Shown: piece by piece, positions 33,665 through 60,343 of the stretch
Position numbering within the stretch: position 1 is the stretch's first letter
Layout of the letters: every line of letters starts with the position of its first letter
Source: an uncultured Acidimicrobiales bacterium
Lineage (GTDB): Bacteria; Actinomycetota; Acidimicrobiia; Acidimicrobiales; Ilumatobacteraceae
DNA: 64,000 nt
Direction: 5' to 3'
NCBI GenBank assembly: GCA_963798445.1
Contig: CAWCTH010000005.1
Span: forward strand, 14,506 to 78,505
Notes under the pieces: generated by a model
Databases searched by the model: none
What the model was told of the DNA's origin: nothing
The model's input: only the letters and a program-made list of their open reading frames with translations
Position numbers and translations under genes: made by a program

Positions 33665-34912
33665 ATGCCTTGGCCGTCCGACGTCGACCCCGATCGCCAG
33701 CTGTTCGCCCTCCTCGACGACGAGCTGCGGCGCCAGAACACCACGATCCAGCTCATCGCGTCGGAGAACTTCACGTCGCCGGCGGTGCTGCGGGCCACGG
33801 GCTCGGTGCTCACCAACAAGTACTCCGAGGGCTACCCGTCGAAGCGCTACTACGGCGGCAACCAGGTGATCGACGAGGTCGAGGACCTGGCTCGGGAGCG
33901 GGCCAAGTCGCTGTTCGGGGCCGAGCACGTCAACGTGCAGCCGCACTCCGGTGCCAACGCCAACATGGCCGCCTACATGGCCATGCTGGAGCCGGGCGAC
34001 ACGGTGATGGGCCTCAGCCTCGACCACGGCGGCCACCTCACCCATGGGTCGCCCGTCAACGCCAGCGGCAAGCTCTACAACTTCGTGTCCTACAAGCTGT
34101 CACCCAGCGACGAGCGCATCGACATGGATGCCGTTCGCGACGTTGCCCTGCAGCACCGCCCGCGCATGATCGTGGCCGGAGCCACGGCGTATCCCCGCCG
34201 CATCGACGCCGAGCCGTTCCGGGCGATCTGTGACGAGGTCGGCGCCTACTTCCTGTTCGACGCCGCCCACATCGCCGGGCTCATCGCCGGTGGCGCCCAC
34301 CCGTCGCCCGTACCGCTGGCCGACATCGTGACGCTCACCACCCACAAGACGCTGCGCGGGCCGCGGGGCGGGGCCATCCTGTGCAAGGCCGAGCACGCCC
34401 AGGCCATCGACAAGGCGGTTTTCCCGGGCAGCCAGGGCGGTCCGCTCGAGCACGTCATCGCAGCCAAGGCGGTGGCGTTCCGCGAGGCCTTGGATCCAAG
34501 CTTCCGGGACTACGCCGCCCAGGTCGTCACCAACGCCGCCGCGCTGGCCGCGGGGCTCGGGGCCGAAGGCTTCCGCCTGGTGTCGGGCGGCACCGACAAC
34601 CACCTCGCACTGGTCGACCTGCGCACGTTCGACGCCGAGCTCACCGGCAAGCAGGCCCAGGAAGTGCTCGACCGGGCCGGCATCACCCTCAACCGCAACA
34701 CCATCCCCGACGATCCCCGGAGCCCCTTCGTGACCAGCGGCGTGCGGATCGGCAGCGCCAGCACCACCACCCAGGGGATGCGCGAGCCGGAGATGGCGTT
34801 GATCGCCCAGCTCATCGCCCGGGCCCTGCGGCACCGGACCGACGACGCCGAGCTGGCAGCCGTGCGCGACGACGTCGCCACGCTGTGCTCCAAGTTCACG
34901 CCGTATCAATAG
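33665..34912 (+). CDS. glyA: serine hydroxymethyltransferase
   Basis: '[35 protein letters not shown]' and '[15 protein letters not shown]' (PLP Lys). Confidence 0.95.
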
Positions 34913-34929
34913 CGACGGCTTCGCCGTCG
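34913..34929 (+). terminator. short hairpin immediately after glyA (CGACGGC-ttc-GCCGTCG), no U-tract
   Basis: Read directly. Confidence 0.3.
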
Positions 34930-35036
34930 GAGTCGAACTGATGTACGCAGGCGGTCATAGATGCCCGATATTCGCGTCAGTACGCGGGAGCGTGGCGTCG
35001 CCGTGCTGAGCCGTCGGCGCACCTAGCCTGGGCCGA

Positions 35037-43759: not shown

Positions 43760-44866
43760 TCACGGGGTGTCCTTGCGGCTGGTCATCTGGTCGAACAATT
43801 TGACGAACTGGTCGGCGACGTCCACCCACGACATCTCTAGTGCCCACGTTCGGGCCTGCTGAACCACGGCGTCGTCGATGGTGTCGACGGCGGCAAGGGC
43901 GTCGCGCCACGAGCCTGGCTCGAGCGGATGGTGGACAAGGCGGGCGTGGCCACCGGCTACTTCGCGGAAGGCCGGGATATCGCTGGCCACGACCGGCACG
44001 CCGAGCTGCATGGACTCGATGACGGGTAGGCCGAAGCCTTCGTGCAGGCTGGGAATGACCACGACGGCAGCGCCGCCATAGCGCCGGCCCAGCTCGTCGT
44101 CGTCGATCCAGCCGAGGTGGCGGACGCGATCGCGGCAGCCCGATTGGTCGATCAATTGGTCGAGGTGCTGCTGTTCGGCGGCGCTGATCGGACCGGCGAG
44201 CACGAGGTCGAGATCGAGGCCCCCCAGCGCGAACGCCCGAACGAGGGTGTCCACGTTCTTGTGCGGCATGAGCGACCCGACGTACAGCGCGTAGGGGCGC
44301 TCGCCGGCAGCCGGCGTCGTGCGTTCCACGGTGGTGATGTGCGCCGATGCCGCTTCACCGATCACCGAGACCCGAGATGGATCGATCGCCACGAACGCGT
44401 CCAGGCTCATGTGGGTGAATTCACTGACGCACACGACGTGGGTCGCGGTCCGGCAGGCGCGGGGGAGCGCCGCAACGAAGCGGAGATGGCGGCCCAAGGT
44501 GTCGTAGCGGGGCGCCACGACGGCGCGCACGTCGTGCACCACCATCACCGATGGCACCGCGAGGTGGCGCAGCGTCATCTCGGGGTAGGGGATGAGTACG
44601 ACATCGGCGCCGGATCGGCTGGCGATGCGCCCGAGGTTGGCCTCCCGCCACGCCGTACGGGCGGCGAACCCCTGCGTCGCCGCGGGAGCGGCGATGATGG
44701 TGGCCGCCGGTGTGTGCGCGAACTCGGCCGGCCGGCTGGTGATGATGTCCAGGGCCACGTCGTCGCGGTCGTAGAGGGCGCCGGCCAGGCTGCGGATGTA
44801 GGTGCGGAGGCCGCCGAGGTTCGGCTTCACAACGGCGGCGTCGACGAGGATGCGCCGGCGATTCAC
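43760..44866 (-). CDS. GT4-family (GT-B) glycosyltransferase
   Basis: 'RPYALYVGSLMPHKN' and 'PSLHEGFGLPVIESMQLGVPVVASDIPAFREV'. Confidence 0.8.
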   Translation of the reverse strand: MNRRRILVDAAVVKPNLGGLRTYIRSLAGALYDRDDVALDIITSRPAEFAHTPAATIIAAPAATQGFAARTAWREANLGRIASRSGADVVLIPYPEMTLRHLAVPSVMVVHDVRAVVAPRYDTLGRHLRFVAALPRACRTATHVVCVSEFTHMSLDAFVAIDPSRVSVIGEAASAHITTVERTTPAAGERPYALYVGSLMPHKNVDTLVRAFALGGLDLDLVLAGPISAAEQQHLDQLIDQSGCRDRVRHLGWIDDDELGRRYGGAAVVVIPSLHEGFGLPVIESMQLGVPVVASDIPAFREVAGGHARLVHHPLEPGSWRDALAAVDTIDDAVVQQARTWALEMSWVDVADQFVKLFDQMTSRKDTP

Positions 44867-46386
44867 GTGGCTGCCTTCGTGCGGCCTTCGCGGCGGCTCA
44901 TGTCGCGCAGCGCGGACGTGAGCAGCGTCCGGTCCAGGATCAGCACGCCGGCGAGGTAGACGGCGACGCCGGTCACCACGCCGGCCAGGAGGACGGCACT
45001 ACGGGGGGCGACCGGGTCGAGGGCCTGCTGGACGCCGATCACCGCCGCGACCATGACGCCGCTGGCGATCAGGATGCCGCGGAGAGCCACGACTTGGCGC
45101 ATGAAGCCGAGGCCGGTGATCCGACGGACGAAGAAGAAGCTCAACGGCACCACGATCCACCCGGTCACGGTGAATGCGATCGCCACCCACACGATGCTGA
45201 AGCGCGCCGCGATGATGGACGCCGGGGCGCCGAGCGCCACCTGGGCGCCGATGACGATGAGCCCGGCGCGGGGATGCCCGCGCGACTCGCAGGCATACGC
45301 ATGCAGGCGCACGAGTGCCAGGCGCAGACCGTTCAGCGAGAGGATCTGGAGGGCGGGCACCGCGGGCAGCCATTGGGGCCCGAACACGACCAAGACGAGA
45401 TCGTGGGCGACGACGGCGGTGCCCAAGGTGAGGGGCACGTAGAGCGCGCACACGTAGCGCTCGACGCGCATCAGCGTGTCCTGGAACCGGGCGCGCTCGT
45501 CTTGCAGCGTGGCCAGCACGGGTTCGAGCACGCCGCCGATGGCGTCGAGCAGCCGATCGAGCGGGAGGAACAGGAACCGGTAGCCCAGGCTGTACTGGCC
45601 GAGGGCGTCGGCGCCGAGCTGGCGGCCCACGACGATGCTGTCGATGCTGCCCTGGGCCACGATCAGCAGCCGAGTGCCGCTGGCGGCGATGCTGAAGCCG
45701 AGCAGATCCTTCAACGTGGCGAGGTGCATCGACAGCTGTGGTCGCCACACGCCCGCACGGGTGGCGAACATCCAGGCCAGACTGGTCGCCACGAAGGACT
45801 CGGTGACGGCCATGCCGGCCAGGGACCACAGGCCGGCGTTGGCGATGGCCATCACCACACCGACGGCGGCACCGGCGGCCGTGGCGATCGTGGACGAGAG
45901 CACGAAGTCGCGAATGAAGAGGCGGCGCACCAGCATGGAGTTGGGCACGCCCTCGAAGCCCCGCAGCAGGAACATGACGCTGAGCACGCGCAGCAGCGGC
46001 CCCAGCTCGGGTTCGCTGAACCACGTGGCGATCGTGCCGGCCGTGGCGAACACGACGACCATGAGCACGAGCCCGCAGAGTCCGCTGGTCGTGAAGGCCA
46101 CGGCCACGTGGCGGCGCGTGATCTGCTGGCGCTGGACGAGGGCCTGGGCGAAGCCGAGGGCGCCGAGCAGCGTGCCGACGTTGATGACCACGAGGGCCAG
46201 CGCCATGGCGCCGAAGTCGCTCGGCGCCAGCAGCTTCGTGAGCACGATCTGCACGGCGAGGCGCACGACTTGCTGGGTGCCCTGGTTGAAGGCGCCCCAG
46301 CGCAGCCCTACCGACGCCCGCACGGCGAGCTGATCGGAGGCCGGGCGAGCGCTGAGCTCGCTGTCAGAGTCGGCGAAGGTGTGCAT
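44863..46386 (-). CDS. Wzx-type oligosaccharide flippase (MOP superfamily)
   Basis: 507 aa with about 12-14 TM helices. The N-terminus 'GLRWGAFNQGTQQVVRLAVQIVLTKLLAPSDFGAMAL' is typical of polysaccharide-biosynthesis flippases. Its stop overlaps the start of the next gene. Confidence 0.8.
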   Translation of the reverse strand: MHTFADSDSELSARPASDQLAVRASVGLRWGAFNQGTQQVVRLAVQIVLTKLLAPSDFGAMALALVVINVGTLLGALGFAQALVQRQQITRRHVAVAFTTSGLCGLVLMVVVFATAGTIATWFSEPELGPLLRVLSVMFLLRGFEGVPNSMLVRRLFIRDFVLSSTIATAAGAAVGVVMAIANAGLWSLAGMAVTESFVATSLAWMFATRAGVWRPQLSMHLATLKDLLGFSIAASGTRLLIVAQGSIDSIVVGRQLGADALGQYSLGYRFLFLPLDRLLDAIGGVLEPVLATLQDERARFQDTLMRVERYVCALYVPLTLGTAVVAHDLVLVVFGPQWLPAVPALQILSLNGLRLALVRLHAYACESRGHPRAGLIVIGAQVALGAPASIIAARFSIVWVAIAFTVTGWIVVPLSFFFVRRITGLGFMRQVVALRGILIASGVMVAAVIGVQQALDPVAPRSAVLLAGVVTGVAVYLAGVLILDRTLLTSALRDMSRREGRTKAAT

Positions 46387-46393
46387 CAGCGCC

Positions 46394-48277
46394 TCAGCGC
46401 CCGGCGAGCGGCGGACACGACGCCAACCCGTCTGCGGAGCTTCCGTAGAGGTAGGCCGTGGTGGTGCGCAAACCGAACAAGCGGTGATGCTGGACGCGGT
46501 CGAGCAGCACGTAGCCCGGCGGCGCCGTGGATTCGCCCGAAACGATGGCGCAGCGGACGAAGTCGGGGAAGTACGCGTCGTAGGTGGCGGGCGGGTACAC
46601 GGTCAGCTCGTCCACGATGATGTCCGGACGAGCTACCCCGCGGTAGTGGTAGCCGACCCAGTCGAAGCCGGCATCCACGTTGGCCGGCGCGTAGCCCAGC
46701 TCCACCAGCCGGTCCCCGCCGTGCCAGCGCAGCTCCAGCAGGTCCTGGCTGTCGACGGCGGAGATGACCCCTAGCAGGGCGATGGGCACGAACACGATGG
46801 CGGTCAACGTCAACCGGCGGCGGTTCGGCGCCCGCTCGACGCGGTTGTCGAGGGCGAGGATCGTGAGGCCGATCACCACAGGGATCAAGTAACGATCGTA
46901 GATCGCGCGGTAAGCGAGATTGACCGCAAGAACGCCGAGGGTGCCGACGATGGTCCAGATGAGGGTGATGCGGGTGAGCGCGGTGGTCCTGGAGACCAGG
47001 TCAACAAGCTCGTGGCGGTCACGCCGGCGAGCCGCGGCCCACAGCCGCTGGAGGGCGTCGACGACACCCACCGTGGCGACGAACAGGGTGACGGCGGCCA
47101 GCACCTGCACCACGCCCCACGAAAAGTGGTCGAACAGGTGAGGGAAGGCGACGTCGGTGCCCTGGTATCCGCCGGCCTCCTGGAGCGAGTTGCCGACGAG
47201 GAGGGAGCCGTCTCGCCGGTCGAGCAGCATCCCGCCGGCGGTCACGGTGAGCGCGATCAACGCGAGACCGACGCGGCCGCGGCCCGACCGGCTCCAGCGG
47301 CGCATGACACCGATGGTGCGCCCGAACCAACCCGTCAGGATGCCGACCGGCGTGAGGAACACGGCGAGGGTGGTGGCCGCTTGGTAGAGGCGCGCCACCT
47401 GGCCGGTGATGGAGCCGCGGACGATGGCCATCGTGGGTCCCTCGAGCGGCGTCGTCAGCATGAGCACGGCCACCGCCAGCAGCACGGCAAGGCCGACGGC
47501 GACGATGACCCGGCGCTCGCGCGCTTTGGCGTTCGGGTGGGTGAACAGCGCCGCCAGCACGGCCAGCGGCGCAGCGATGGCGGCCTGTCGGATGGAGCCG
47601 CCCCACGTCCCGATCAGCGCGACCGCGACGAGGGTGGCGAGCGGCAGGCGGCCGTTGGTGGCCCACCGCTGCCAGGCCACGACGCCGAGCACCACGCACG
47701 CCAGCTGTGCCAGCAAGGCCGGCTGCTCGGTCATGTAGGTGGAGACGGTGGAGCCGAAGCCCAGCATGACCACGAGCGTCAACGGCGCGATCGGCCAGAG
47801 GGCACGGGCACGGCTGCGCCTGGCGAGGACGGCCGTGAGTACGAGCGAGCCGGCCGCCGCCAGGATGCTCAGCACCCGGAGGCCGGCCACCGAGCTGCCG
47901 GTGATCGGCGAGAGCAGCTTCGATGCCAGCAGCTGCCCGAGAAGACTGGTGTCGTTCCAACCGACGCCTTCGAGGTGGCCGTCGTCCAGGAAGCGCTGAG
48001 CGATGCGCAGGTAACCCCAATCGTCGCTGTAGGCGCGATGGATGGCACCACTGAGCACGGACCACAGGACGGCGCCGACGAAGAAGACGACGGTGGCGGC
48101 TACGGCGGCGATGCCCCAGGTGGCGTGCGCCGTCTCGTGGCGTGCGGGCCGGGTGGCGGTTGTCACCACGCCGGCATCGTCTTCGTCCGGGTCGAGCCGC
48201 GACGGGTCAGCTCGCTGCGCACGGGCGCCTGAACCTCCTCCGGTCGCCGCGGTCGGGAGCGTCGCGCGCGAGGTCAC
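46394..48277 (-). CDS. large polytopic membrane protein, putative GT-C-fold (ArnT/PMT_2-like) glycosyltransferase
   Basis: 627 aa. The first loop after TM1 carries 'YSDDWGYLRIAQRF' (an acidic DD motif, as in GT-C enzymes). It has about 11-13 TM helices and a ~150-aa C-terminal soluble domain. Confidence 0.5.
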   Translation of the reverse strand: MTSRATLPTAATGGGSGARAQRADPSRLDPDEDDAGVVTTATRPARHETAHATWGIAAVAATVVFFVGAVLWSVLSGAIHRAYSDDWGYLRIAQRFLDDGHLEGVGWNDTSLLGQLLASKLLSPITGSSVAGLRVLSILAAAGSLVLTAVLARRSRARALWPIAPLTLVVMLGFGSTVSTYMTEQPALLAQLACVVLGVVAWQRWATNGRLPLATLVAVALIGTWGGSIRQAAIAAPLAVLAALFTHPNAKARERRVIVAVGLAVLLAVAVLMLTTPLEGPTMAIVRGSITGQVARLYQAATTLAVFLTPVGILTGWFGRTIGVMRRWSRSGRGRVGLALIALTVTAGGMLLDRRDGSLLVGNSLQEAGGYQGTDVAFPHLFDHFSWGVVQVLAAVTLFVATVGVVDALQRLWAAARRRDRHELVDLVSRTTALTRITLIWTIVGTLGVLAVNLAYRAIYDRYLIPVVIGLTILALDNRVERAPNRRRLTLTAIVFVPIALLGVISAVDSQDLLELRWHGGDRLVELGYAPANVDAGFDWVGYHYRGVARPDIIVDELTVYPPATYDAYFPDFVRCAIVSGESTAPPGYVLLDRVQHHRLFGLRTTTAYLYGSSADGLASCPPLAGR

Positions 48278-48334: not shown

Positions 48335-49474
48335 TCAGAGTCGCTGCCCGGGCCGACGTGTCGTCGACGGGCGGGACAGCAGGATGGAGATGGCCGCCGC
48401 CGAGCGCGGTGCCGAGGTGCCGTCGCCGTACGGCGAGGGCATCATGGCCAACCGAGCGTGCAGCCCGGGGACGTCAGCCAGCAGCTGATCGATCCACGCG
48501 GTGATGAGCGGGCCGGGCGGGACGAGCTGTGCGAACGTGCCGAGGATCTCGGGCCGCTCGGTGGAGTTGCGCACCACCAGCACCGGCCGCTTGATGATGC
48601 TGGCCTCTTCTTGCACACCACCCGAGTCCGACACCAACAGCGCGGACTCGGCGGACAGGGCGAGGAACTCGCGGTAGCCCATCGGCTCGGCCACACGAAG
48701 GGGCTTCAGCAGACCCTCGAGGCCGAACGAGGCGATCTTGGCGCGGGTGCGGGGATGGAGCGGCAGGACCACCGGCATGGGCACCGCACCGAGCTCGGTG
48801 AGGATGACCGCCAGTGTGTCGGGATCGTCGACGTTCTCGGGACGATGGAAGGTGGTGAGCACGAAGTTGGCCGCCTCGAGCTCGTGACGAGCCAGCACGG
48901 CCAGGCGCTCGTCGGGACCGGGCAGCAGGGACGCCACCGCGTCGACGACGGTGTTGCCGGTGAGGATCACCTTGTCGCCCCCGATGCCCTCCGCCGCCAG
49001 GTTGGCGCGGTTGGTCTCGGTCGGCGCGAGGCAGAGGTCGGCGAGGTGGTCGGCCACGACCCGGTTGTGCTCTTCGGGCATGGCTCGGTCGAAGCTGCGC
49101 AACCCGGCTTCAAGGTGCACCAGGGGGATGTTGGTGGCATTGGCGGCGAGGGCACCGGCGACGGTGGCGTTCGTGTCGCCGTGGACCACCACGACCGCCG
49201 GCGGGGCGGCGTGGAACGCGGCCTCGAGGCGGGACGTGGCGTCACCGATCTGCGTGCCGCGTGAGCGACCGCCGATCTCGAGCAGGAGATCGGGCCGGCC
49301 GATGCCCAGCTCGGCCAGGAACTGGCCCGACAGCTGCTCGTCGTAGTGCTGGCCGGTGTGGACCACGCGGGCCTGCTCACCGAACAACTTCACGAGCGGC
49401 GCGACCTTGATCAGCTCCGGTCGGGTGCCCAAAACGAAAGCGATACTCTTTGGGCCCAAGCCGACAGTCACCAT
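48335..49474 (-). CDS. wecB: UDP-N-acetylglucosamine 2-epimerase (non-hydrolysing)
   Basis: 'IAFVLGTRPELIKVAPL', 'HTGQHYD', 'VVVHGDTNAT', 'HLEAGLRSFDRAMPEEHNR'. Confidence 0.9.
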   Translation of the reverse strand: MVTVGLGPKSIAFVLGTRPELIKVAPLVKLFGEQARVVHTGQHYDEQLSGQFLAELGIGRPDLLLEIGGRSRGTQIGDATSRLEAAFHAAPPAVVVVHGDTNATVAGALAANATNIPLVHLEAGLRSFDRAMPEEHNRVVADHLADLCLAPTETNRANLAAEGIGGDKVILTGNTVVDAVASLLPGPDERLAVLARHELEAANFVLTTFHRPENVDDPDTLAVILTELGAVPMPVVLPLHPRTRAKIASFGLEGLLKPLRVAEPMGYREFLALSAESALLVSDSGGVQEEASIIKRPVLVVRNSTERPEILGTFAQLVPPGPLITAWIDQLLADVPGLHARLAMMPSPYGDGTSAPRSAAAISILLSRPSTTRRPGQRL

Positions 49475-49687: not shown

Positions 49688-50899
49688 GTGTCGGCCATTC
49701 GGCTGCCTTCTGACCAGGATGCCAGCGGTCGTTCATTCGGCCCCGAGGAGCTCGATGCTCTTCGCGAGGTGCTCGACAGCGGCACCCTCACCGCTACGAA
49801 GGGTGAGTTCACCAAGCGATTCGAAGCCGCCATCTCCGACCAGCTCGGCATCGAGCACGTCATCTCCTGCGCGTCCGGTAGCGCGGCGGTGCACGTCGCC
49901 ATTGCCGGTCTCGACCTGGAGCCCGGCGACGAGGTGATCACCACCTCCATCACCGACATGGGTGCACTCACCCCCATCCTCTATCAGGGCGCCATTCCGG
50001 TCTTCACCGACGTCGACCCCGACACCATGAACGTGACGGCGGCCACCATCGAGGCCAGCCTGTCGGACCGCACCCGGGCCATCATCGTCACCCATCTCTT
50101 CGGCAACCCCTGCCAGATGGACGAGATCCTCGCCCTGGCCGCCACCCGTGGGATTCCCGTGATCGAGGACGCCGCCCAGGCGTACCACGCCCAGAGCAAG
50201 GGCCGGCCGGTCGGCACCATGGGCGCCGTCGGGTGCTTCAGCTCCCAGCAGGGCAAGCACATCACCTCCGGCGAAGGAGGCTTCGTCGTGACCGGCGACG
50301 CCGCGCTGGCCCGCCGCATGCGGGTCTTCGTGAACAAGGCCTGGCCCTACGGCGAGGCCAACCCCGACCACGAGTTCCTGGCCCTCAACTACCGCATCAC
50401 CGAATTGCAGAGCGCGGTGCTGTTCGCGGCGCTGGCCAAGCTCGACGCCAACGTCAAGGTGCGCGTCGCCAACGCCCAGCGGCTGAGCGAGCAGCTCGAA
50501 GGCCAGCCCGGCCTCGGAGCGCCCGTCGTGGCCCCCGACGACCTCCACTCCTACTGGCGCTACTGCCTGCGGGTGGACCCGGCCGTCGTCGCGGGCGGAC
50601 CGTCGGCGCTGGCGCAAGCGCTGCGCTTCTACGACATCGCGGCGGCGCCGCGCTACATCCAGAAGCCGGCGTTCCACTGCAAGGTCATCGCCGACCAGGT
50701 GACGTTCGGGACCAGCCGCTGGCCGTTCACCCTGGCCCGCCCCGAGGCGGTCGACTACGCCGCCGAGAAGTTCCCGGGCACCTACGCCGGCCTCGAGCAG
50801 GCGCTGGTACTCCCGTGGAACGAGCGGATGACCGACGAGCACATCGACTTCCTGGGCACCAGCATCATCGAGGCGTTGGCGTCGCTGGAGGCCAAGTGA
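49688..50899 (+). CDS. DegT/DnrJ/EryC1/StrS-family PLP-dependent sugar aminotransferase
   Basis: GTG start after GAGAGGAG. 'SCASGSAAVHVA', 'IEDAAQA', 'FSSQQGKHITSGEGG' (PLP Lys). Confidence 0.9.
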   Translation: MSAIRLPSDQDASGRSFGPEELDALREVLDSGTLTATKGEFTKRFEAAISDQLGIEHVISCASGSAAVHVAIAGLDLEPGDEVITTSITDMGALTPILYQGAIPVFTDVDPDTMNVTAATIEASLSDRTRAIIVTHLFGNPCQMDEILALAATRGIPVIEDAAQAYHAQSKGRPVGTMGAVGCFSSQQGKHITSGEGGFVVTGDAALARRMRVFVNKAWPYGEANPDHEFLALNYRITELQSAVLFAALAKLDANVKVRVANAQRLSEQLEGQPGLGAPVVAPDDLHSYWRYCLRVDPAVVAGGPSALAQALRFYDIAAAPRYIQKPAFHCKVIADQVTFGTSRWPFTLARPEAVDYAAEKFPGTYAGLEQALVLPWNERMTDEHIDFLGTSIIEALASLEAK

Positions 50900-51927
50900 G
50901 CACGGCCGCCCCGACCAAGAAGGTCAAGATCGGCATCGTCGGCGCCGGCGGCATCGCCAAGGCGTACGCCGATCTGCTGCCCACCTCCGCCACGGCGACG
51001 TGTGTCGGGGTGGCCGACGTGAACGTCGAGGCGGCGGCGGCCATGGCCCGCGGCCTCGACTGCCCATCGTTCGCTTCGGCGCACGAGCTGGCCGCCGTGG
51101 ACGGTCTGGAAGCGGTCGTGCTGTGCACGCCGCCCGCCACCCACGTCGCGCTGGCCGAGCAGTTCGCCGACATCGGCGTGCACGTGCTGTCCGAGAAGCC
51201 CCTCGCCGTCAACCGGCACGCGGCCGCCGAGATGGCCTCCATTGCCGAGCGCCGCGGCATCTTGCTCACGATGGCCACCAAGTTCCGTTTCTGCAACGAC
51301 GTGAACCGGGCGGCTCTCATCCTGTCGTCGGGTCGCATCGGCGAGGCCCGCCTGGTCGAGAACGCGTTCACGTCGCGCGTCGACATGGGCGGGCGGTGGA
51401 ACTCCGATCCCGCCGTCTCCGGTGGCGGTGTCCTGGTTGACAACGGCACCCACTCGGTCGATCTGGTCCGCTACCTCCTCGGCCCCATCTCCGAGGTCTT
51501 GGCCGTCGAGACCAGCCGGCCGAACGGCTTCGTCGTCGATGACACGTGCCGTCTCCACCTCCGCACCGAAGCCGGCCACGATGCCCACGTCGACCTGTCG
51601 TGGAGCATCGACAAGTCGCTGAGCGACTTCCTGCGCATCTACGGCACGCTCGGCGAGATCCGGGTGGGTTGGCGCGAGTCGGCGTGGCGGCTGCACGGCG
51701 GCGACTGGGAAGTGATCGGTTCGGGCTATGCGAAGGTCCCGGCCATGGGTGGCGCCCTCGATGCCTTCTGTCTGGCCGTGCGGCGTGAGGCCCCCCTGGC
51801 GGTCAGCGTCGACGACGGCGTTGCGGCGGCGACGTGCATCGACGGCGCCTACGAGTCGTTGCGACGCGGTGGCTGGGTGAAGCTGGCCGAACTGGCGTTG
51901 GACGATCTGGAGGTCAGCGCTCGATGA
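50896..51927 (+). CDS. Gfo/Idh/MocA-family NAD-dependent sugar oxidoreductase (WbpB/GnnA-like)
   Basis: The GTG start overlaps the previous stop (GTGA). Rossmann motif 'VKIGIVGAGGIAKAY' and 'SEKPLA'. Confidence 0.85.
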   Translation: MSTAAPTKKVKIGIVGAGGIAKAYADLLPTSATATCVGVADVNVEAAAAMARGLDCPSFASAHELAAVDGLEAVVLCTPPATHVALAEQFADIGVHVLSEKPLAVNRHAAAEMASIAERRGILLTMATKFRFCNDVNRAALILSSGRIGEARLVENAFTSRVDMGGRWNSDPAVSGGGVLVDNGTHSVDLVRYLLGPISEVLAVETSRPNGFVVDDTCRLHLRTEAGHDAHVDLSWSIDKSLSDFLRIYGTLGEIRVGWRESAWRLHGGDWEVIGSGYAKVPAMGGALDAFCLAVRREAPLAVSVDDGVAAATCIDGAYESLRRGGWVKLAELALDDLEVSAR

Positions 51928-52550
51928 TCGCCGCCGGCGTGCGCATCCACGAGACAGCGATGATCGAGGGAGGCGTCGCCATCGGCGAAGGCACGTCGGT
52001 GTGGGACTCGGTGCACATTCGTGGCCCGGGCACGACGATCGGCGAGGACTGCATCATCGGGGAGAAGTCCTACGTTGCCTACGGTGTGGCCATCGGCGAC
52101 CGCGTCAAGATCAATGCCTTCGTGTACATCTGCACCGGTGTCACCATCGAAGACGGCGTCATGATCTCGGCCGGTACCACCTTCACCAACGACCGCTACC
52201 CCCGCGCCACCACCAACGACCTGTCCAAGCTTCGTCCATCCGATCCGGACGAGCACACGCTGCCCACCATCGTGCGGGCCGGCACCACCATCGGCGCCCG
52301 GGCCACCATCGGACCCGGTGTCGAGCTCGGACGCTTCTCCATGGTGGGCATGGCCGCCGCCGTCACGCGATCGGTCGACGCGTTCCATCTCGTCGTGGGC
52401 CAGCCCGCTCGCGTCGTCGCCGCGGTGTGCCGCTGCGGCGAGCCGTTCCTGCGCGCCGTCGACGGCCTTCTTCCCGACACCAACGACGTCGAGTGCACCC
52501 TGTGCGGGCTGCGGTACGGCGTCTCCGACAACATCGTCCAGGAGTTGTGA
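51924..52550 (+). CDS. left-handed beta-helix (hexapeptide) N-acetyltransferase (WbpD/WlbB-like) with a C-terminal Cys4 ribbon
   Basis: The start overlaps the previous stop (ATGA). Hexapeptide repeats 'IGEGTSVWDSVHIRGPGTTIGEDCIIGEKSYV...'. The C-terminus has 'CRCG...CTLCG'. Confidence 0.85.
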   Translation: MIAAGVRIHETAMIEGGVAIGEGTSVWDSVHIRGPGTTIGEDCIIGEKSYVAYGVAIGDRVKINAFVYICTGVTIEDGVMISAGTTFTNDRYPRATTNDLSKLRPSDPDEHTLPTIVRAGTTIGARATIGPGVELGRFSMVGMAAAVTRSVDAFHLVVGQPARVVAAVCRCGEPFLRAVDGLLPDTNDVECTLCGLRYGVSDNIVQEL

Positions 52551-53866
52551 TGGCGCGCTGGGGGGTGATCGGGGGCGGTGTGCTGGGGCTGATGCTGGCC
52601 CACCGCCTGTCGCAGGAGGGCCACGACGTCACGCTGATCGAGGGCACACCCGAGCTCGGCGGCCTCGCCTCCGCATGGCAGATCACCATCCCCGGCGACG
52701 GCGAACGCCCGGACGAGACCATCACCTGGGACCGCCACTACCACGTCACCCTGCTGTCGGATCAGCGCACCCAGGAGATGGTCCGGGTGGCGGGTCTGGC
52801 CGACCAGCTCCAGTGGGTCGAGACCAAGACCGGCTACTACGGCACCGACAGCACGTTGCGATCGGTCTCGAACACGCTCGAGTTCCTGCAGTTGCCTGGC
52901 CTCAACCCGATCGACAAGCTGCGCCTGGGCGGCACCATCGTGTACGGCTCGAAGGTCCGCGACGGCAAGCGCATGGAACGGATCCCGGTCGACGCGTGGC
53001 TGCGGCGCTGGTCGGGCCCGCGCACGTTCGAGCGCTTCTGGAAGCCCTTGCTGCGGGCCAAGCTGGGCGACGCCTACCAGGCCGCCTCGGCGGCGTTCAT
53101 CTGGGCCACGATCCAGCGGCTCTACGCCGCTCGCCGCAGCGGCCTCAAGAAGGAGATGTTCGGCTACGTCACCGGCGGCTACGCCCGGGTGTTCGAGCGT
53201 CTCGGCGCCGCGTTGACCGCCGAAGGCGTGAAGCTCATGCTCGGCGCGCCCGTTCGGCGCATCCGCCGCGACGGCGCCTTCCTCGCGGTCGACACCGACA
53301 TCGGCACCGAGCGCTTCGACAGTGTCGTCATGACCACGAACTCCCACCTGGCCGCCGACCTCTGCCCCGAGCTGAGAGCGGAGGAGGCGGAGCGGATGCG
53401 GTCCGTGCGCTACATGGGGATCGTGTGCGCGTCGCTGGTGCTCCGGCGGCGTCTGGCGCCGTACTACCTCACCTACATCACCGACCCCGATACGCCCTTC
53501 ACCGCCGTGGTGGAGATGACCTCGTTCGTCGATCCGGCCGAAGTGGGTGGTCACCATCTCGTCTACCTGCCGAAGTACGTCGCCCCCGACGACCCGCTGT
53601 TCGAGGCCGGCGACGACGTCATCAGGGCCAGCTTCCTGCCCTACCTCCAGCGGATGTACCCGTCGTTGCGCGACGACGACGTTCTCGCGTTCCGGGTCTC
53701 GCGGGTGCGGCGGGTGTTCGCCGTGCCGACATTGGGCTACTCGGGGCTGATGCCGTCGATGGCCACGTCGGTGCCCGGGTTGCACCTGGCCGGTTCGGCG
53801 CAGCTTCCCTTCGCCACCCTCAACGTGAACGATACGCTCGGATTGGTGGAGGAGTTCCTCCGATGA
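52550..53866 (+). CDS. NAD(P)/FAD-dependent oxidoreductase (amine-oxidase / phytoene-desaturase-like fold)
   Basis: The start overlaps the previous stop (TGATG). It has the dinucleotide motif 'WGVIGGGVLGLMLAHRLSQEGHDVTLIEG...GGLA'. 438 aa. Confidence 0.75.
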   Translation: MARWGVIGGGVLGLMLAHRLSQEGHDVTLIEGTPELGGLASAWQITIPGDGERPDETITWDRHYHVTLLSDQRTQEMVRVAGLADQLQWVETKTGYYGTDSTLRSVSNTLEFLQLPGLNPIDKLRLGGTIVYGSKVRDGKRMERIPVDAWLRRWSGPRTFERFWKPLLRAKLGDAYQAASAAFIWATIQRLYAARRSGLKKEMFGYVTGGYARVFERLGAALTAEGVKLMLGAPVRRIRRDGAFLAVDTDIGTERFDSVVMTTNSHLAADLCPELRAEEAERMRSVRYMGIVCASLVLRRRLAPYYLTYITDPDTPFTAVVEMTSFVDPAEVGGHHLVYLPKYVAPDDPLFEAGDDVIRASFLPYLQRMYPSLRDDDVLAFRVSRVRRVFAVPTLGYSGLMPSMATSVPGLHLAGSAQLPFATLNVNDTLGLVEEFLR

Positions 53867-54846
53867 AGCCTTGGGCCTCACTCTCCCTCGACCTGGACAA
53901 CCTCTGGGCGTACCAGATGACCCACGGTGACGAGGGCTGGGACGACTACGGCTCGTACCTGAGCACGCTGGTGCCGATCGTGCTGGACCAGCTGGCCGCC
54001 GAGCGCCTGCGGATCACGTTCTTCGTGGTGGGCCGAGACGCTGCTCTGGCCCGCAACGAGAAGCCGATCCGGGCGCTGGCCGAGGCCGGGCACGAGATCG
54101 GCAACCACTCCTTCCGTCATCAACCCTGGCTCCATCGCTACACCCCCGACGAGATCCACGACGAGTTGCGCCGCGCCGAGGACGCCATCGAAGCCGTCAC
54201 CGGCCGGCGCACCGTCGGGTTCCGCGGGCCGGGCTACAGCCTCTCGGCGGACGTGCTGCGGGTGCTCGTCGACCGCGGCTACCGGTACGACTGCTCCACG
54301 TTGCCCACGGTGATCGGCCCGCTGGCGCGCAAGTACTACTTCCGGTCGGCCAAGCTCTCGGCCGAGCAGCGAGCCGAGCGGGCGTACCTGTTCGGCGGCT
54401 TCCGCGAGGGCCTCCGGCCGGTGAAGCCCTACGAGTGGCAAGTCGGCCCCGACCGGCTGCTGGAGATCCCCGTCACCACCATGCCGTGGGTCCGCATCCC
54501 GGTGCACGTGAGCTACGTCCTGTACCTGGCCGGTCCGTCGCCGGCGCTGGCGCGGCAGTACTTCGCCAACGCCATGCGCCTCTGCCGGCTGGCCGGTGTC
54601 GAGCCGTCCATCCTGCTGCACCCGCTCGACTTCCTCGGCGCCGACGACGTCGATGCCCTCGGGTTCTTCCCGGGCATGGGCATGACCGGCGAGCGGAAGC
54701 GGGCCGTCGTGACGGACTGCCTGCGCGAGCTGAACCGGCAATTCCGCGTGGTGCCCATGAGCGAGCACGCCGAAGCCATCGTGGCGCGGGGAGACCTCGC
54801 CGTGAAGCCGTCGGCCGACGCCACGCCCGTCCTGGAGCGCACATGA
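53863..54846 (+). CDS. polysaccharide deacetylase family (CE4/NodB-like) protein
   Basis: The start overlaps the previous stop (ATGA). 'ITFFVVGRDA', 'GHEIGNHSFRH', 'GFRGPGYS'. No signal peptide is evident. Confidence 0.8.
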   Translation: MKPWASLSLDLDNLWAYQMTHGDEGWDDYGSYLSTLVPIVLDQLAAERLRITFFVVGRDAALARNEKPIRALAEAGHEIGNHSFRHQPWLHRYTPDEIHDELRRAEDAIEAVTGRRTVGFRGPGYSLSADVLRVLVDRGYRYDCSTLPTVIGPLARKYYFRSAKLSAEQRAERAYLFGGFREGLRPVKPYEWQVGPDRLLEIPVTTMPWVRIPVHVSYVLYLAGPSPALARQYFANAMRLCRLAGVEPSILLHPLDFLGADDVDALGFFPGMGMTGERKRAVVTDCLRELNRQFRVVPMSEHAEAIVARGDLAVKPSADATPVLERT

Positions 54847-56012
54847 TGGACGAGCTGGCCATCGATCCGCGCCCGCTGGTGTCGGTCGTCGTGCCGGCCT
54901 ACAACGAGGCGCTGAAGCTGATGGGGTCGCTCACCGCCATCTACAACTACCTCGGCACCCTCCACGACCGCTACCGGTTCGAGCTGCTCGTCGTCGACGA
55001 CGGCTCCACCGACGAGACCGGCGACATCGCCGACGCCTTCGCCAAGACGCACACCGGCGTCATCGTGCTGCATCACCGGGTCAACTTCCGGCTGGGACAG
55101 GCACTCCAGTACGCCATCGGGCGGTCGAAGGGCGCATACGTCGTCACGTTCGACTCCGACCTCAGCTACTCGGTCGACCACATCGGCCGCCTGCTCGACG
55201 CCCTTTCGGAGCAGCACGCCCGCGTTGCGGTCGCGTCGCCCTACATGAAGGGTGGCCGCACCAGTGCCATCCCGTGGCGCCGCGGCGCCATGAGCAAGGG
55301 CGCCAACAAGCTGCTGTCGAAGGTGACGCACTCTCGTATCGCCACCGTCACCGGCATGGTGCGGGCCTACGACGGGCCGTTCATCCGCAGCCTCGACCTC
55401 AAGGCGATGGGCCCGGAGATCAACACCGAGATCCTCTACAAGGCGCAGATCATGCGCGCCCGCGTGGTGGAGATCCCCGCCCACCTCGACTGGAGCGAGC
55501 AGACCGAGCGCATGCAGGCCCGCAAGGTGAGCCTGCGCGTCAGCAACACGTCGAAGCTGATCGTGTTCGCCAGCTTCCTGTTCCGCCCGCTCGTCTTCTT
55601 CGTCTTCCCCGGGCTGGTCCTGCTGGTCATCTCGGCGTGGACCCTTGGCGCCGTTGCCTTCGACGTCGTTCGCCAGTTCTTCGACTCGAACGGCAGCATC
55701 GACAACCGCCTCTACGACGCCTTCGCCATCACCTGGGAGCAGCGACCGCAGTCGTTCATCGTGGGCGGCTTCAGCTTCGTCGTGGCCGTGCAGCTCATCA
55801 GCCTCGGCTTGCTGGCGACGCAGACGAAGCGTTACTTCGAGGAGCTCTACCACCTCGGCACGTCGGTGCGGCGACGGGTCGATCGCATCGAGACCAGCCT
55901 CACGGTGGCCGGTGTGGAGCCGGTCGAGCGGGAGATGGTGGCCGCACCTGGCATGGACGAGCCGGTCACTCTCGAGGCCTCCGAGCCACCGACACCGGTC
56001 ACCTCGAGCTGA
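54843..56012 (+). CDS. GT2 glycosyltransferase with two C-terminal TM helices (polyprenyl-phosphate sugar synthase architecture: GtrB/ArnC/DPM1/PpgS-like)
   Basis: The start overlaps the previous stop (ATGA). 'VSVVVPAYNE', 'LLVVDDGSTDET', 'FDSDLS'. The TM helices are 'LIVFASFLFRPLVFFVFPGLVLLVI' and 'FIVGGFSFVVAVQLISLGLLA'. Confidence 0.85.
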   Translation: MMDELAIDPRPLVSVVVPAYNEALKLMGSLTAIYNYLGTLHDRYRFELLVVDDGSTDETGDIADAFAKTHTGVIVLHHRVNFRLGQALQYAIGRSKGAYVVTFDSDLSYSVDHIGRLLDALSEQHARVAVASPYMKGGRTSAIPWRRGAMSKGANKLLSKVTHSRIATVTGMVRAYDGPFIRSLDLKAMGPEINTEILYKAQIMRARVVEIPAHLDWSEQTERMQARKVSLRVSNTSKLIVFASFLFRPLVFFVFPGLVLLVISAWTLGAVAFDVVRQFFDSNGSIDNRLYDAFAITWEQRPQSFIVGGFSFVVAVQLISLGLLATQTKRYFEELYHLGTSVRRRVDRIETSLTVAGVEPVEREMVAAPGMDEPVTLEASEPPTPVTSS

Positions 56013-56024
56013 CGCGGAGGTCCG

Positions 56025-56444
56025 ATGCAAACGGAACCCTCTCAACGCGCCAGATGGGCGCCTCCACCTCACGTCGCGCCGCCAGCAGCGCTGGCGGTGG
56101 CAGACGAACGCGGCGGCGCGCCCTCGGTGTGGGTACGGGTGCTGGAGGTCCTCTTCCTCGCCGGCCTGGCCGGCGTGTTCCTGGTCAACGCCCTGATCGC
56201 CGTCCTGCAACCAGCGGACTTCACCGAACTGGTGGACAAGAGCGTGCTGGCGCAGTCGTCGGGCGTGGCGGGCGGCGATTGGATCGCCCCGCTGATCTGC
56301 GTCAACGACGTTCTCCTCGGTGTTGGCATCCTGTGTGCCATCTGGGCCCGGCATGCTGTACGGGTCGTGATCCTGGCTTGGGCCGGGTTGTGGTTCTTCG
56401 CCATCACCGCGGTCAAGGTGACGGCACTCAACAGTTTTCCCTAG
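56025..56444 (+). CDS. small (139 aa) three-TM membrane protein
   Basis: Three hydrophobic segments: 'VLEVLFLAGLAGVFLVNALIAVL', 'LICVNDVLLGVGILCAIW' and 'VVILAWAGLWFFAITAV'. It is packed between the GT2 gene and galE. Confidence 0.5.
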   Translation: MQTEPSQRARWAPPPHVAPPAALAVADERGGAPSVWVRVLEVLFLAGLAGVFLVNALIAVLQPADFTELVDKSVLAQSSGVAGGDWIAPLICVNDVLLGVGILCAIWARHAVRVVILAWAGLWFFAITAVKVTALNSFP

Positions 56445-56457
56445 AGGAGGTCGACCG

Positions 56458-57450
56458 ATGGCGGTGCTCGTCACGGGTGGAGCGGGCTACATCGGGTGTC
56501 ACACGGTCCGGGCCCTGCGCGAGCTGGGTCGCGAGGTCGTGGTCCTGGACACGCTGGAGACGGGCTACGAGGCGGCGGTCCTCGGCGCGCCCCTGGTCGT
56601 CGGCGACATCGCCGACACCGACCTGGTGCGCCAGATCGTGAAGGACCACCACGTCGACAGCGTCATCCACTTCGCCGGCTACAAGAACGCCGGCGAGTCG
56701 ATGGAGCGCCCCGGTAAGTACTTCGCCAACAACGTGGAGGGCACCGCGCGCCTGCTGCGCGCCATCGAGGGAACCGACGTGGCGTCGTTCGTGTTCTCCG
56801 GGTCGTGCTCGGTCTACGGCACGCCCGAGCAGCTACCCGTGAGCGAGGCGGCGCCGTTGCAGCCCGAGAGTCCCTACGGGCAGAGCAAGCTCATGGCCGA
56901 GCAGATGCTGCGCTGGTACGGCGAGCGCCTGGGCCTGCGCTGGGCCAGCCTCCGTTACTTCAACGCCTCGGGTGCGTCCGCCGACGCCGCCATCGGCGAG
57001 GACATCAACATCACGTTGAACCTCGTGCCGTTGGTCATGAAGGCCACGCTCGGCCTGCGTCCCCCGGTGCAGGTCTTCGGCACCGACTTCCCGACCCACG
57101 ACGGCACCGCCATCCGCGACTACATCCACGTCGAGGATCTGGCTTCCGGTCACCTCCTCGCACTGCAGCACCTCGAGGGTGGTGGACCCTCGCTGGCCGT
57201 CAACCTCGGCACCGGCACCGGCTCATCGGTGCGAGAGGTGATCGACACGACCGAGCGCATCAGCGGACGGCCCGTGCCGCACGAGTACGTGGGGCGCCGT
57301 CCCGGCGACCCGAGTGCGGTGTGGGCCGACAACCGCCTTGCCGCCGAGGTGCTGGGTTGGACGCCGTCGTTCGGGCTCGACGAGATCATCGAGTCAGCGT
57401 GGCGCTGGCACTCCACTCATCCGGAGGGCTACATGTCGGTGGGGGTGTAG
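56458..57450 (+). CDS. galE: UDP-hexose (or UDP-HexNAc) 4-epimerase
   Basis: 'VLVTGGAGYIGCH', 'SGSCSVYG', 'YGQSKLMAE' (YxxxK), 'PGDPSAVWAD'. Confidence 0.9.
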   Translation: MAVLVTGGAGYIGCHTVRALRELGREVVVLDTLETGYEAAVLGAPLVVGDIADTDLVRQIVKDHHVDSVIHFAGYKNAGESMERPGKYFANNVEGTARLLRAIEGTDVASFVFSGSCSVYGTPEQLPVSEAAPLQPESPYGQSKLMAEQMLRWYGERLGLRWASLRYFNASGASADAAIGEDINITLNLVPLVMKATLGLRPPVQVFGTDFPTHDGTAIRDYIHVEDLASGHLLALQHLEGGGPSLAVNLGTGTGSSVREVIDTTERISGRPVPHEYVGRRPGDPSAVWADNRLAAEVLGWTPSFGLDEIIESAWRWHSTHPEGYMSVGV

Positions 57451-59521: not shown

Positions 59522-60343
59522 TTGGTGCGGTTGCTGGACGGAATGAGGCGGGTGGCTCGGCGAGCGGGTGTGAGACGGGCCCAGGTGGTCACCGCCCGCA
59601 CCTACGCCGAGCGGAGCGTTCTGTCCTGGTCAGGCCGTCGGCACGGGGCGCGAGCCAGCGGGATGCGAGGACGCATCCTTTGCTACCACTCGATCGGCCA
59701 GTCGGGCTACGGCATAAATGACGTCCGGCCCCATCGCTTCCGACATCACCTGGAGGTCGCCCTGACGGCGGGCTACCGCTTCGTACCAGCGGTGGTGATC
59801 GCACGAGGCGAGGGCTTCTCCATGGACCTCGCCGTGACGTTCGACGACGGGTTGACCAGCGTCCTGGACACCGCGGTCCCCATCCTGCAGGACCTGAAGA
59901 TTCCAGCCGAATGCTTCGTCGTGACGTCGTGGGCCGATCACGACTCCGACTGGTCCCGCAGCAACGCGCTGGACTGGGGTGGTGTGGTAGCGCTCCGCGA
60001 TGCCGGCGTCGAAATAGGGAGCCATTCGCTCACCCATCCCGACTTCGGAGTCCTGGCGATGGCCGACGCTCGCGAGCAGCTCGCCACGTCGAAGGACATC
60101 CTCGAGCAACGGCTCGGCGCTCCGATCACGGACTTTGCGATCCCGTTCGGCCAGTCAGGCAACTGGGGCACGACGCTGACCGCCCTCGCACGAGAGGTGG
60201 GCTACGACGCCGTCTACGCGCAGTCCGAGCACCGGCGGCCCCCCGAGACCACCGCTCGGACGTTCATCACGTCCGTGGACAACGAGCGGCGTTTCCTCGC
60301 CGCTGTCCGGGGCGCGTTCGACGGCTGGGAGGAATGGGTTTGA
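59522..60343 (+). CDS. polysaccharide deacetylase family (CE4/NodB) protein
   Basis: 'ILCYHSI', 'AVTFDDGLTS' (TFDDG motif), 'EIGSHSLTHPD' (H-x4-H). The exact start is uncertain. Confidence 0.75.
   Translation: MVRLLDGMRRVARRAGVRRAQVVTARTYAERSVLSWSGRRHGARASGMRGRILCYHSIGQSGYGINDVRPHRFRHHLEVALTAGYRFVPAVVIARGEGFSMDLAVTFDDGLTSVLDTAVPILQDLKIPAECFVVTSWADHDSDWSRSNALDWGGVVALRDAGVEIGSHSLTHPDFGVLAMADAREQLATSKDILEQRLGAPITDFAIPFGQSGNWGTTLTALAREVGYDAVYAQSEHRRPPETTARTFITSVDNERRFLAAVRGAFDGWEEWV

Follow-up and report, generated by a model that had tools for sequence, protein, structure and literature searches.

A predicted Arn-like pathway for a partly deacetylated diamino sugar, encoded by a conserved gene core in an uncultured Acidimicrobiales bacterium and its distant relatives

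We examined a 64,000-nucleotide stretch of DNA from an uncultured Acidimicrobiales bacterium of the Ilumatobacteraceae (positions 14,506 to 78,505 of contig CAWCTH010000005.1, assembly GCA_963798445.1; hereafter the window), in which an original prediction had set apart five consecutive plus-strand genes as a module for decorating the cell envelope with a free amino sugar. We find that these five genes form the 3' portion of a longer operon, which comprises eight genes and spans 49688-57450. Six of the eight encode a DegT-family sugar aminotransferase, a GFO/IDH/MocA-family sugar dehydrogenase (GFO), an N-acetyltransferase, an FAD-dependent oxidoreductase, a carbohydrate esterase family 4 (CE4) deacetylase and a family 2 glycosyltransferase (GT2), and, judging from their recurrence in other genomes, they form a conserved core. 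The best-supported reading of this core, to which we give an even chance of being correct, is an Arn-like pathway in which a 2,3-diamino sugar would be built, loaded onto a carrier lipid and partly deacetylated. The system is known from its genes alone, that is, from gene content, coupling, folds, motifs, gene order, fusions and the adjacency of GT-C glycosyltransferase genes.

The five originally described ORFs are all present in the window, with third-position GC (GC3) values of 0.80-0.94, which are of coding type for a genome of approximately 68-70% GC, and their domain labels agree with the Pfam and NCBIfam matches. The FAD protein (52550..53866, plus strand, as are all genes of the operon) has the amine-oxidase fold and is a full-length member of NCBIfam family NF005560 (PRK07233), scoring 422.4 bits against a cutoff of 252. 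The CE4 protein (53863..54846) carries Polysacc_deac_1 (PF01522, 5.4e-21) and the GT2 (54843..56012) carries Glycos_transf_2 (PF00535, 1.1e-29); next come a 139-aa membrane protein (56025..56444) and a GalE-type UDP-hexose 4-epimerase (56458..57450; TIGR01179, 392 bits, cutoff 262). The ATGA stop/start overlaps that had been claimed to link the FAD, CE4 and GT2 genes were found in the sequence at 53863 and 54843.

The boundary drawn around these five genes did not stand. Three genes lie upstream of the FAD gene and are coupled to it: the aminotransferase (DegT/DnrJ/EryC1 family, pyridoxal phosphate-dependent; 49688..50899; PF01041, 1.5e-82), which is the first gene of the operon, an NAD-dependent GFO enzyme that we predict to be a 3-dehydrogenase (50896..51927; PF01408 and PF22725), and a left-handed beta-helix N-acetyltransferase of WlbB/WbpD-like type (51924..52550). 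The three upstream junctions are GTGA, ATGA and TGATG overlaps, and DegT through GT2 are consequently chained by overlapping stops and starts in the order GTGA, ATGA, TGATG, ATGA, ATGA, while spacers of 12-13 nt bearing GGAGG precede the small-protein gene and GalE. Because of the chained overlaps upstream and these spacers downstream, we take 49688-57450 as the transcription unit.

To assess conservation, one genome per species was scanned with conserved peptides of the FAD protein, yielding at least 600 matching stretches and 572 confirmed relatives, of which 80, with 49-72% identity to the window protein, were kept as reference loci. The window proteins were then searched against six-frame ORFs of all loci, and counts were taken over loci with enough flank. 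The FAD relatives come from Actinomycetota, Chloroflexota, Cyanobacteria, Acidobacteriota, Planctomycetota, Myxococcota and Ignavibacteria, and the closest named ones belong to Acidimicrobiales and Ilumatobacteraceae metagenome-assembled genomes (MAGs). Over the loci the genes form a colinear string, DegT-GFO-acetyltransferase-FAD-CE4. The flank upstream extends for 4 kb or more in 66 loci, and of these 52 have DegT, 55 have GFO and 57 have the acetyltransferase; CE4 occurs in 57 of the 72 loci with enough flank. A GT2 of the window type follows CE4 in 12 of 13 actinomycetotal and chloroflexotal loci, and precedes DegT in four of six cyanobacterial ones. The FAD protein is the best conserved marker of the entire system, not a local oddity. 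Two loci with 55-59% FAD identity (L014 and L067) lie on contigs labelled as Burkholderiales and Alcaligenaceae MAGs, labels that could reflect misbinning or horizontal transfer.

The expectation that the five genes would recur together was borne out for FAD-CE4-GT2, which is a recurrent arrangement, but not for GalE and the small protein, which are confined to near relatives. None of the 53 loci with full flanks has either of them, and none has the GT-C candidate of the window discussed below. The small protein recurs only in loci L001 and L085 and GalE in L085, where the GT2 is 83% identical and the eight-gene order is the same as in the window; L001 (82% GT2 identity) retains the small protein and not GalE. 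The two genes are lineage-specific additions. Locus L001 also gave many fragmented, frame-shifted matches over DegT, GFO, FAD and CE4, which suggests a low-accuracy assembly rather than pseudogenes.

Fusions provide a further line of evidence. FAD and CE4 form a single ORF in four independent MAGs (L015, L020, L024 and L063), joined by Pro/Ala/Arg-rich linkers of 32-38 residues. CE4 and a window-type GT2 form a single ORF at L013:11008-13464, with a 14-residue linker, where a one-base assembly error in the ATGA overlap is possible. In the acidobacterial locus L035, the GT2 position is occupied by a single polypeptide in which a TIGR03006-like CE4 half (Polysacc_deac_1 plus DUF3473), which nearly passes that model (262.9 against 276.2), is joined to a GT2 half without transmembrane (TM) segments whose best matches are PgfS, ArnC and PpgS. 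Most loci from Acidobacteriota and Planctomycetota have, at the same position, long ORFs with weak GT2 and CE4 matches. The FAD::CE4 and CE4::GT2 fusions, including that of Acidobacteriota, indicate that FAD, CE4 and GT2 work as one unit, and the claim that the deacetylase is physically coupled to the synthase is strengthened by the fusions beyond the ATGA overlap seen here. An extra "CE4" in the cyanobacterial locus L073 proved to be the allantoinase PuuE and is unrelated to the module.

The GT2 had been described as an enzyme of the polyprenyl-phosphate type with two C-terminal TM helices, and hydropathy places such segments at approximately 236-277 and 303-328. Its best matches in the Protein Data Bank (PDB) are the dolichyl-phosphate mannose synthase PfDPMS (5mlz; 7.5e-14, residues 13-215), ArnC and GtrB, the three polyprenyl-phosphate glycosyltransferases of known structure, with the whole GT-A domain aligned, and its best NCBIfam models are PpgS (3.1e-15) and ArnC, over residues 13-219; processive GT2 models cover residues 7-130 only. 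The motifs PAYNE, DGSxDxT, DSDLSY and EIPAH are kept in the orthologues; for D104-S-D106-L-S-Y this holds in at least 95% of the 27 compared. The corresponding DXD blocks of the reference enzymes are DADLQD in GtrB, DADLQN in ArnC and DADLQH in DPMS (PMC12690121), and DSDLSY aligns with this DADLQx block. These comparisons support grouping the protein with the polyprenyl-phosphate GT2 enzymes, and polyprenyl phosphate (Pren-P) is its likely acceptor; that part of the earlier assignment stands, whereas orthology to PpgS or ArnC does not. Some homologues also show weak matches to Glyco_transf_21, which is ceramide-glucosyltransferase-like.

The CE4 protein has the full NodB catalytic set, namely D10/D12, H82-S-x-x-H86, R121-G-P and L-L-H253, and each of D10, D12, H82, H86, R121 and H253 is shared by at least 95% of the 62 orthologues compared. 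With its catalytic motif starting as early as residue 6, the protein is too short at the N-terminus to hold a signal peptide, and hydropathy shows no hydrophobic segment, in agreement with the original description. Because of this placement, and because the domain is fused between two cytoplasmic domains in other genomes, we conclude that the deacetylase is cytoplasmic; its catalytic residues are intact. The structures that match it best are HpPgdA (3qbu) and, from M. smegmatis, 3rxz, and the nearest NCBIfam model is that of the XrtA-system deacetylase, TIGR03006 (5.7e-20; 71.6 bits against a cutoff of 276), which we used as a putative stand-in for a VimE-like family. Profile comparison did not bear out a relationship of orthology to ArnD: the protein scores 21.9 bits against the NF011923 cutoff of 382, and no ArnD occurs among the 38 PDB matches of the CE4 family profile at E values up to 0.01. 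We therefore ruled out this assignment.

The three upstream genes bear on the identity of the sugar. The DegT protein matches ArnB (1e-44) and WbpE (3e-37) in the PDB and is a generic sugar aminotransferase. The best PDB matches of the GFO enzyme are 3q2k and 3q2i (6e-21), which are probably the Bordetella and Chromobacterium WlbA UDP-GlcNAcA 3-dehydrogenases. The acetyltransferase matches 3mqg, "Lipopolysaccharides biosynthesis acetyltransferase" (WlbB), over its full length at 1.6e-27, followed in the PDB search by FdtD- and QdtC-type enzymes, and all of these N-acetylate 3-amino sugars. A five-enzyme Wbp route leads to 2,3-diacetamido sugars (PMC10622841), and the genes here for the predicted 3-dehydrogenase, aminotransferase and 3-N-acetyltransferase, the enzyme kinds of the WbpB/WbpE/WbpD branch, are adjacent and translationally coupled. 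The trio resembles these three steps, although the similarities are moderate and the substrates are deduced from them. Because the conserved partners are WlbA- and WlbB-like enzymes together with DegT, the sugar is most likely a 2,3-diacetamido hexose, which may have the gluco or the manno configuration and may or may not be a uronic acid. The GalNAc or GalN of the original, PpgS-like proposal was dropped in favour of a 3-amino sugar on the same grounds.

Divergent from the operon, on the minus strand, lies a gene for a non-hydrolysing UDP-GlcNAc 2-epimerase of the WecB family (48335..49474; TIGR00236, 277 bits, cutoff 210), and a WecB-family gene adjoins the module in 34 loci. The best PDB match of the window protein is the Thermus UDP-GlcNAc3NAcA 2-epimerase (4.4e-70). 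Enzymes specific for UDP-GlcNAc3NAcA, of the WbpI/WlbD type, have a Trp at the C3' contact, plus Ala18 and Tyr96 (PMC10622841). We withdrew a manno-configured diacetamido sugar based on this neighbour, since its discriminator residues are of the UDP-GlcNAc type.

The flavoenzyme had been called the least explained part, and it could be assigned to a superfamily only. Its AlphaFold2 model has a pLDDT of 85.5, and there is no hydrophobic segment by hydropathy. Foldseek matched the model to PPOX, the M. mazei oxidoreductase 3ka7, rice phytoene desaturase (PDS; TM-score 0.81) and amine oxidases, with TM-scores of 0.74-0.81 to PPOX, 3ka7 and PDS, and at the profile level the protein also matches HpnE (1.4e-29). 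On the strength of the predicted fold we place it in the PPOX/phytoene-desaturase/amine-oxidase superfamily. We considered and rejected a UDP-galactopyranose mutase: there is no GLF (PF03275) match at E values up to 0.01, and mutase structures rank 47th in the fold search. NF005560 is named "hypothetical protein" in NCBIfam, and our literature searches found no paper describing this family. Many of the enzymes that the model matches work on hydrophobic molecules at the surface of the membrane. We raise as a speculation, and one that is more probably wrong than right, that NF005560 represents a new kind of tailoring enzyme, which would oxidise a Pren-P-linked diamino sugar or its freed amine at the membrane surface and would, with CE4 and GT2, constitute an unrecognised pathway in at least six phyla that places a cationic or oxidised 2,3-diamino sugar on the envelope via a GT-C enzyme. 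Such an oxidation of a lipid-linked sugar would be comparable to the action of DprE1 on decaprenyl-P-ribose, the folds being unrelated.

The original prediction had also pointed to a GT-C-like membrane protein next to a flippase. The flippase neighbour was confirmed: a Wzx-type (MOP) protein is encoded at 44863..46386 on the minus strand (PF13440, 1.1e-65; PF01943, 2e-26). The adjacent protein (46394..48277, minus strand) has approximately 12-13 hydrophobic segments and a C-terminal beta domain in a predicted fold with a pLDDT of 73 (AlphaFold2). Its top non-CLC matches in Foldseek are all GT-C enzymes, namely AglB (best E value, 2.4e-4), STT3, ArnT, ALG3, AftA/B, PglB and Pmt1/2, with probabilities of approximately 1.0. 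The family comprises 20 proteins without a Pfam match, and the most distant homologue carries PMT_2. GT-C enzymes carry a catalytic Asp at a position following the first TM segment, and D84 of the candidate, in an SDDW motif after TM1, is nearly invariant. GT-C membership is probable; the predicted fold is GT-C-like, though the TM-scores are low, and the proposed role as partner of the GT2 is plausible.

Elsewhere, 29 of 83 loci contain genes for PMT_2-type GT-C proteins; most of these share the strand of the FAD gene and follow it at a distance of 1-6 kb. The contig of the relative P0016 (71% identical) encodes a 511-aa PMT_2 protein directly after the GT2, in the slot that the small protein occupies in the window. 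In six loci (L035, L028, L046, L054, L083 and L084), a UbiA-family protein resembling decaprenyl-phosphate phosphoribosyltransferase (DPPR synthase) is encoded beside the GT-C, just downstream of the module; the L035 member, at L035:12569-15311, passes the DPPR synthase model with 283 bits against a cutoff of 234. By analogy, the UbiA and PMT_2 pair of these six loci could be a separate three-component system for a pentofuranose. We accordingly toned down the L035 PMT_2 protein as a sure partner of the GT2, although UbiA is missing from 23 of the 29 GT-C-bearing loci.

In the Arn-like scheme that we favour, the GFO dehydrogenase would oxidise C3 of a UDP-GlcNAc-type sugar, DegT would aminate the resulting keto sugar, and the WlbB-like acetyltransferase would cap the new amine to give a UDP-2,3-diacetamido-2,3-dideoxyhexose. 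The GT2 would then load this sugar onto polyprenyl phosphate at the cytoplasmic face of the membrane, and CE4 would strip one N-acetyl group to expose a free amine. The NF005560 flavoenzyme would carry out a redox step on the same intermediate, probably at the membrane surface like its PPOX and phytoene-desaturase relatives. The lipid-linked sugar would be flipped and moved by a GT-C enzyme to an envelope acceptor; in this genome we propose the 46394-48277 protein as a candidate for that enzyme and, as the probable acceptor, the Wzx/Wzy polysaccharide whose genes surround the operon. The sugar, the Pren-P acceptor, the order of loading, deacetylation and redox chemistry, the flippase and the final acceptor are thus elements that we infer. 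The Arn-style logic first proposed for the module emerges stronger, with an aminotransferase and an N-acyltransferase immediately upstream. It also has a biochemical precedent, as ArnC requires a donor that is N-formylated, and its lipid-linked product is then de-acylated by ArnD (PMC12690121).

A different order of steps would lead to the same product, a partly de-N-acetylated diamino sugar. In a Wbp/Vim-like route, CE4 and perhaps the flavoenzyme would act on the UDP-sugar, and the GT2 would afterwards move the tailored sugar to Pren-P or to a lipid-linked glycan. We regard this as possible but doubtful. The gene order acetyltransferase-FAD-CE4-GT2 fits such a sequence of nucleotide-level steps, and so does the character of the CE4 protein, whose nearest NCBIfam model is the XrtA-system TIGR03006 and whose nearest structures, HpPgdA and 3rxz, are soluble, intracellular-type CE4s. 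In P. gingivalis, a CE4 named VimE has been proposed to take an N-acetyl group off the Wbp product (PMC7468200), which is a precedent for CE4 action in the Arn-like scheme too. Fusions among FAD, CE4 and GT2 fit both step orders; a membrane-bound substrate nevertheless agrees at least equally well with the CE4::GT2 fusions and with the flavoenzyme's membrane-type relatives, the Arn transferase requires an N-acylated donor, and the window ORFs that were scanned include no VimA/FemAB-like acyltransferase. We think it improbable that the GT2 instead glycosylates a membrane lipid such as diacylglycerol, giving an amino-glycolipid that CE4 and the flavoenzyme would tailor, with the GT-C genes belonging elsewhere. 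The weak Glyco_transf_21 matches would agree with this, as would the lack of GT-C genes in approximately two-thirds of loci and the LPG_synthase_TM genes, of a lipid-flippase-like type, in cyanobacterial loci; in the six loci with a DPPR-synthase-like UbiA, that neighbour could be the true partner of the GT-C. Against it, the characterised proteins that the GT2 resembles most along its entire GT-A domain are without exception polyprenyl-phosphate enzymes, and both the PMT_2 gene directly after the GT2 in the P0016 contig and the 23 GT-C loci without UbiA point the same way.

The specific model of the original prediction fares worse still. It held that GalE supplies UDP-GalNAc, that a PpgS-like GT2 acts with the small protein, that CE4 deacetylates the lipid-linked sugar and that a GT-C enzyme installs GalN on a wall polymer. 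PpgS is indeed the nominal top NCBIfam match of the GT2, and GalE and the small protein share its operon here and in L085. Yet neither of these two is found in the full-flank loci, whereas WlbA/WlbB-like enzymes and DegT occur almost throughout and are translationally coupled to the FAD-CE4-GT2 trio, and because GalE is not a conserved partner we consider the model very unlikely. The GT2 score falls far short of the PpgS cutoff, and the small protein lacks any match to GtrA, EamA or another relevant family. The GalE protein itself has no hydrophobic segment by hydropathy. Hydropathy did confirm the three TM segments ascribed to the 139-aa protein, which has no Pfam or NCBIfam match; its family comprises 117 representative clusters, and of 45 members scanned, 15 graze MauE and four graze DoxX, so that it may be called distantly MauE/DoxX-like. 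Its proposed analogy to GtrA, ArnE/F or Rv3632 failed, as no GtrA, ArnE/F (EamA/SMR) or Rv3632-type match was obtained at E values up to 10, or among the 45 relatives, and we therefore ruled out a flippase or activator of these types.

Several observations weigh against the Arn-like pathway itself. The GT2 lies below the equivalog cutoffs of both PpgS (NF058614; 56.2 against 370 bits) and ArnC (NF007986; 54 against 529 bits), and CE4 resembles ArnD in the NodB core alone. No UDP-GlcNAc 6-dehydrogenase (WbpA; UDPG_MGDP_dh) was present among the window ORFs scanned, although one may lie elsewhere in the genome, and the adjacent 2-epimerase has R306, H97 and V23 in place of the Thermus Trp307, Tyr96 and Ala18, as in the UDP-GlcNAc type. 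The flavoenzyme is the sole part without a place in Arn logic. The GT-C candidate of the window has TM-scores of 0.26-0.36 and no Pfam or NCBIfam GT-C match, and GT-C genes are adjacent in only about one-third of loci. VimE is placed after WbpD in P. gingivalis, where it may act at the nucleotide level (PMC7468200). Moreover, the comparison loci are all MAGs, and our literature searches found no description of this gene string.

The operon is embedded in a surface-polysaccharide locus. Housekeeping genes fill the first 35 kb of the window, and the region from approximately 35 kb to 64 kb is a Wzx/Wzy-type cluster with a WecA-like primer, Wzy, several GT4 and GT2 genes, a GH39-like gene, Wzx and a second CE4. 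This second CE4 (59522-60343, plus strand; Polysacc_deac_1, 2.7e-21) has a canonical TFDD motif and no hydrophobic N-terminus by hydropathy, its start codon being uncertain, and it could deacetylate a different substrate of the cluster. On the P0016 contig, a gene for serine hydroxymethyltransferase (SHMT) and a WecA-like gene lie directly beside the 2-epimerase and the module (compare 33665-36176 of the window), and the window has approximately 12 kb of Wzy, GT4, GH39-like, Wzx and GT-C-like genes inserted where that contig has none. The region is a variable polysaccharide island surrounding the conserved core. Long ORFs without a Pfam match and with coding-type GC3 occur at 37706-40075 (plus), 13723-15849 (minus) and 25228-26151 (plus); the first encodes 789 aa and sits between Wzy and a GT4 gene, and at 25.2-26.1 kb GC3 is high in ORFs of both strands, leaving the coding strand ambiguous.

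Accessory genes recur near the module in other genomes. A SAM methyltransferase (Methyltransf_23) is encoded in 30 loci, for example at L068:11269-12258 and L073:11361-12269, and a second flavoprotein, PRK07208-like with a faint resemblance to GLF, in 10 loci, for example at L049:12358-13860. The two often lie side by side, which hints that in some phyla the sugar may undergo additional tailoring, for instance by N- or O-methylation. An LPG_synthase_TM protein is encoded in six loci, all cyanobacterial. At L003:11032-21020, on a wastewater Acidimicrobiia contig, FAD-CE4-GT2 abuts a phosphopantetheinyl transferase gene and a giant pair resembling polyketide and nonribosomal peptide synthases, with formyltransferase, AMP-binding, luciferase-like and KS-AT-KR domains.

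The enzyme kinds of this system are all known, and its logic has precedents in the Arn, Wbp/Vim and three-component systems; it is the combination that we did not find described. In the Wbp/Vim linking-sugar pathway of Porphyromonas gingivalis and Tannerella forsythia, WbpB/E/D-type enzymes produce a 2,3-diacetamido sugar, from which a CE4, VimE, is proposed to strip an N-acetyl group so that an amine is exposed (PMC7468200). The present system adds a Pren-P-type GT2, the flavoenzyme and often a GT-C, and neither VimA (a FemAB-like aminoacyl transferase), WbpA nor WbpS was found among the window ORFs scanned. The three-component systems (GtrA/GtrB/Gtr*, GacI/J/K/L and CsbB/GtcA/YfhO) have been reviewed (PMC11127046). 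They share with the system described here the logic of a GT2 Pren-P sugar synthase, a flippase and a GT-C that decorates a glycan outside the cytoplasm. They load unmodified Glc, GlcNAc, Gal or a pentofuranose, whereas the operon has a built-in, dedicated three-enzyme branch for a sugar nucleotide, a deacetylase and a flavoenzyme, and a GtrA-family protein was not found in the window scans.

Hexosamine systems are further parallels. The mycobacterial GalN system reportedly consists of PpgS/Rv3631, Rv3632 and Rv3779, as described by Skovierova et al. in 2010. It combines a Pren-P HexNAc synthase, an implied de-N-acetylation and transfer by a GT-C enzyme; PpgS is not known to have TM helices. 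It differs from the present system in that our GT2 is not a PpgS orthologue, the small protein is unlike the Rv3632 type, GalE is not a conserved partner and the conserved partners point to a 3-amino sugar. In the Francisella FlmF2/NaxD/FlmK and Bordetella LgmA-C systems, an ArnC-like GT2 makes Und-P-HexNAc; the sugar loses its acetyl group while on the carrier, and an ArnT-like GT-C then moves it to lipid A. NaxD is a YdjC-family deacetylase, not a CE4, and these systems are not known to have an aminotransferase/acetyltransferase branch or a flavoenzyme. To our knowledge, no gene has been assigned to the de-N-acetylation step of mycobacterial GalN. If our reading is correct, the core would serve as a model of how such a step can be tied to a Pren-P sugar synthase, in some genomes by outright fusion.

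A close parallel to the whole is the Arn pathway of Enterobacteria and Pseudomonas (ArnB, A, C, D, E/F and T), which shares the DegT aminotransferase, N-acylation of the amine, a Pren-P-type GT2 with two TM segments, a CE4-fold de-acylase and a flippase, and whose GT-C has a candidate counterpart here. The keto group arises by ArnA decarboxylation in Arn and would arise through a GFO 3-dehydrogenase here; the cap is formyl in Arn and would be acetyl here, from a beta-helix acetyltransferase; and the sugar is the pentose Ara4N in Arn and, as we read the genes, a 2,3-diamino hexose here. The CE4 and GT2 of the window are not orthologues of ArnD and ArnC, ArnE/F was not found, and the flavoenzyme is added. 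The present system also occurs in monoderm phyla, which lack lipid A. It is carried, at 50-70% identity, by more than 570 species-representative genomes from at least six phyla, among them soil and freshwater Actinomycetota, Acidobacteriota, Planctomycetota, Cyanobacteria and Chloroflexota. Should the reading hold, it would give functional context to NF005560, offer candidates for free-amine surface sugars in poorly studied environmental phyla, and extend the Arn logic of protecting an amine, loading the sugar on a lipid and deprotecting it to a new class of sugar and to bacteria without lipid A.

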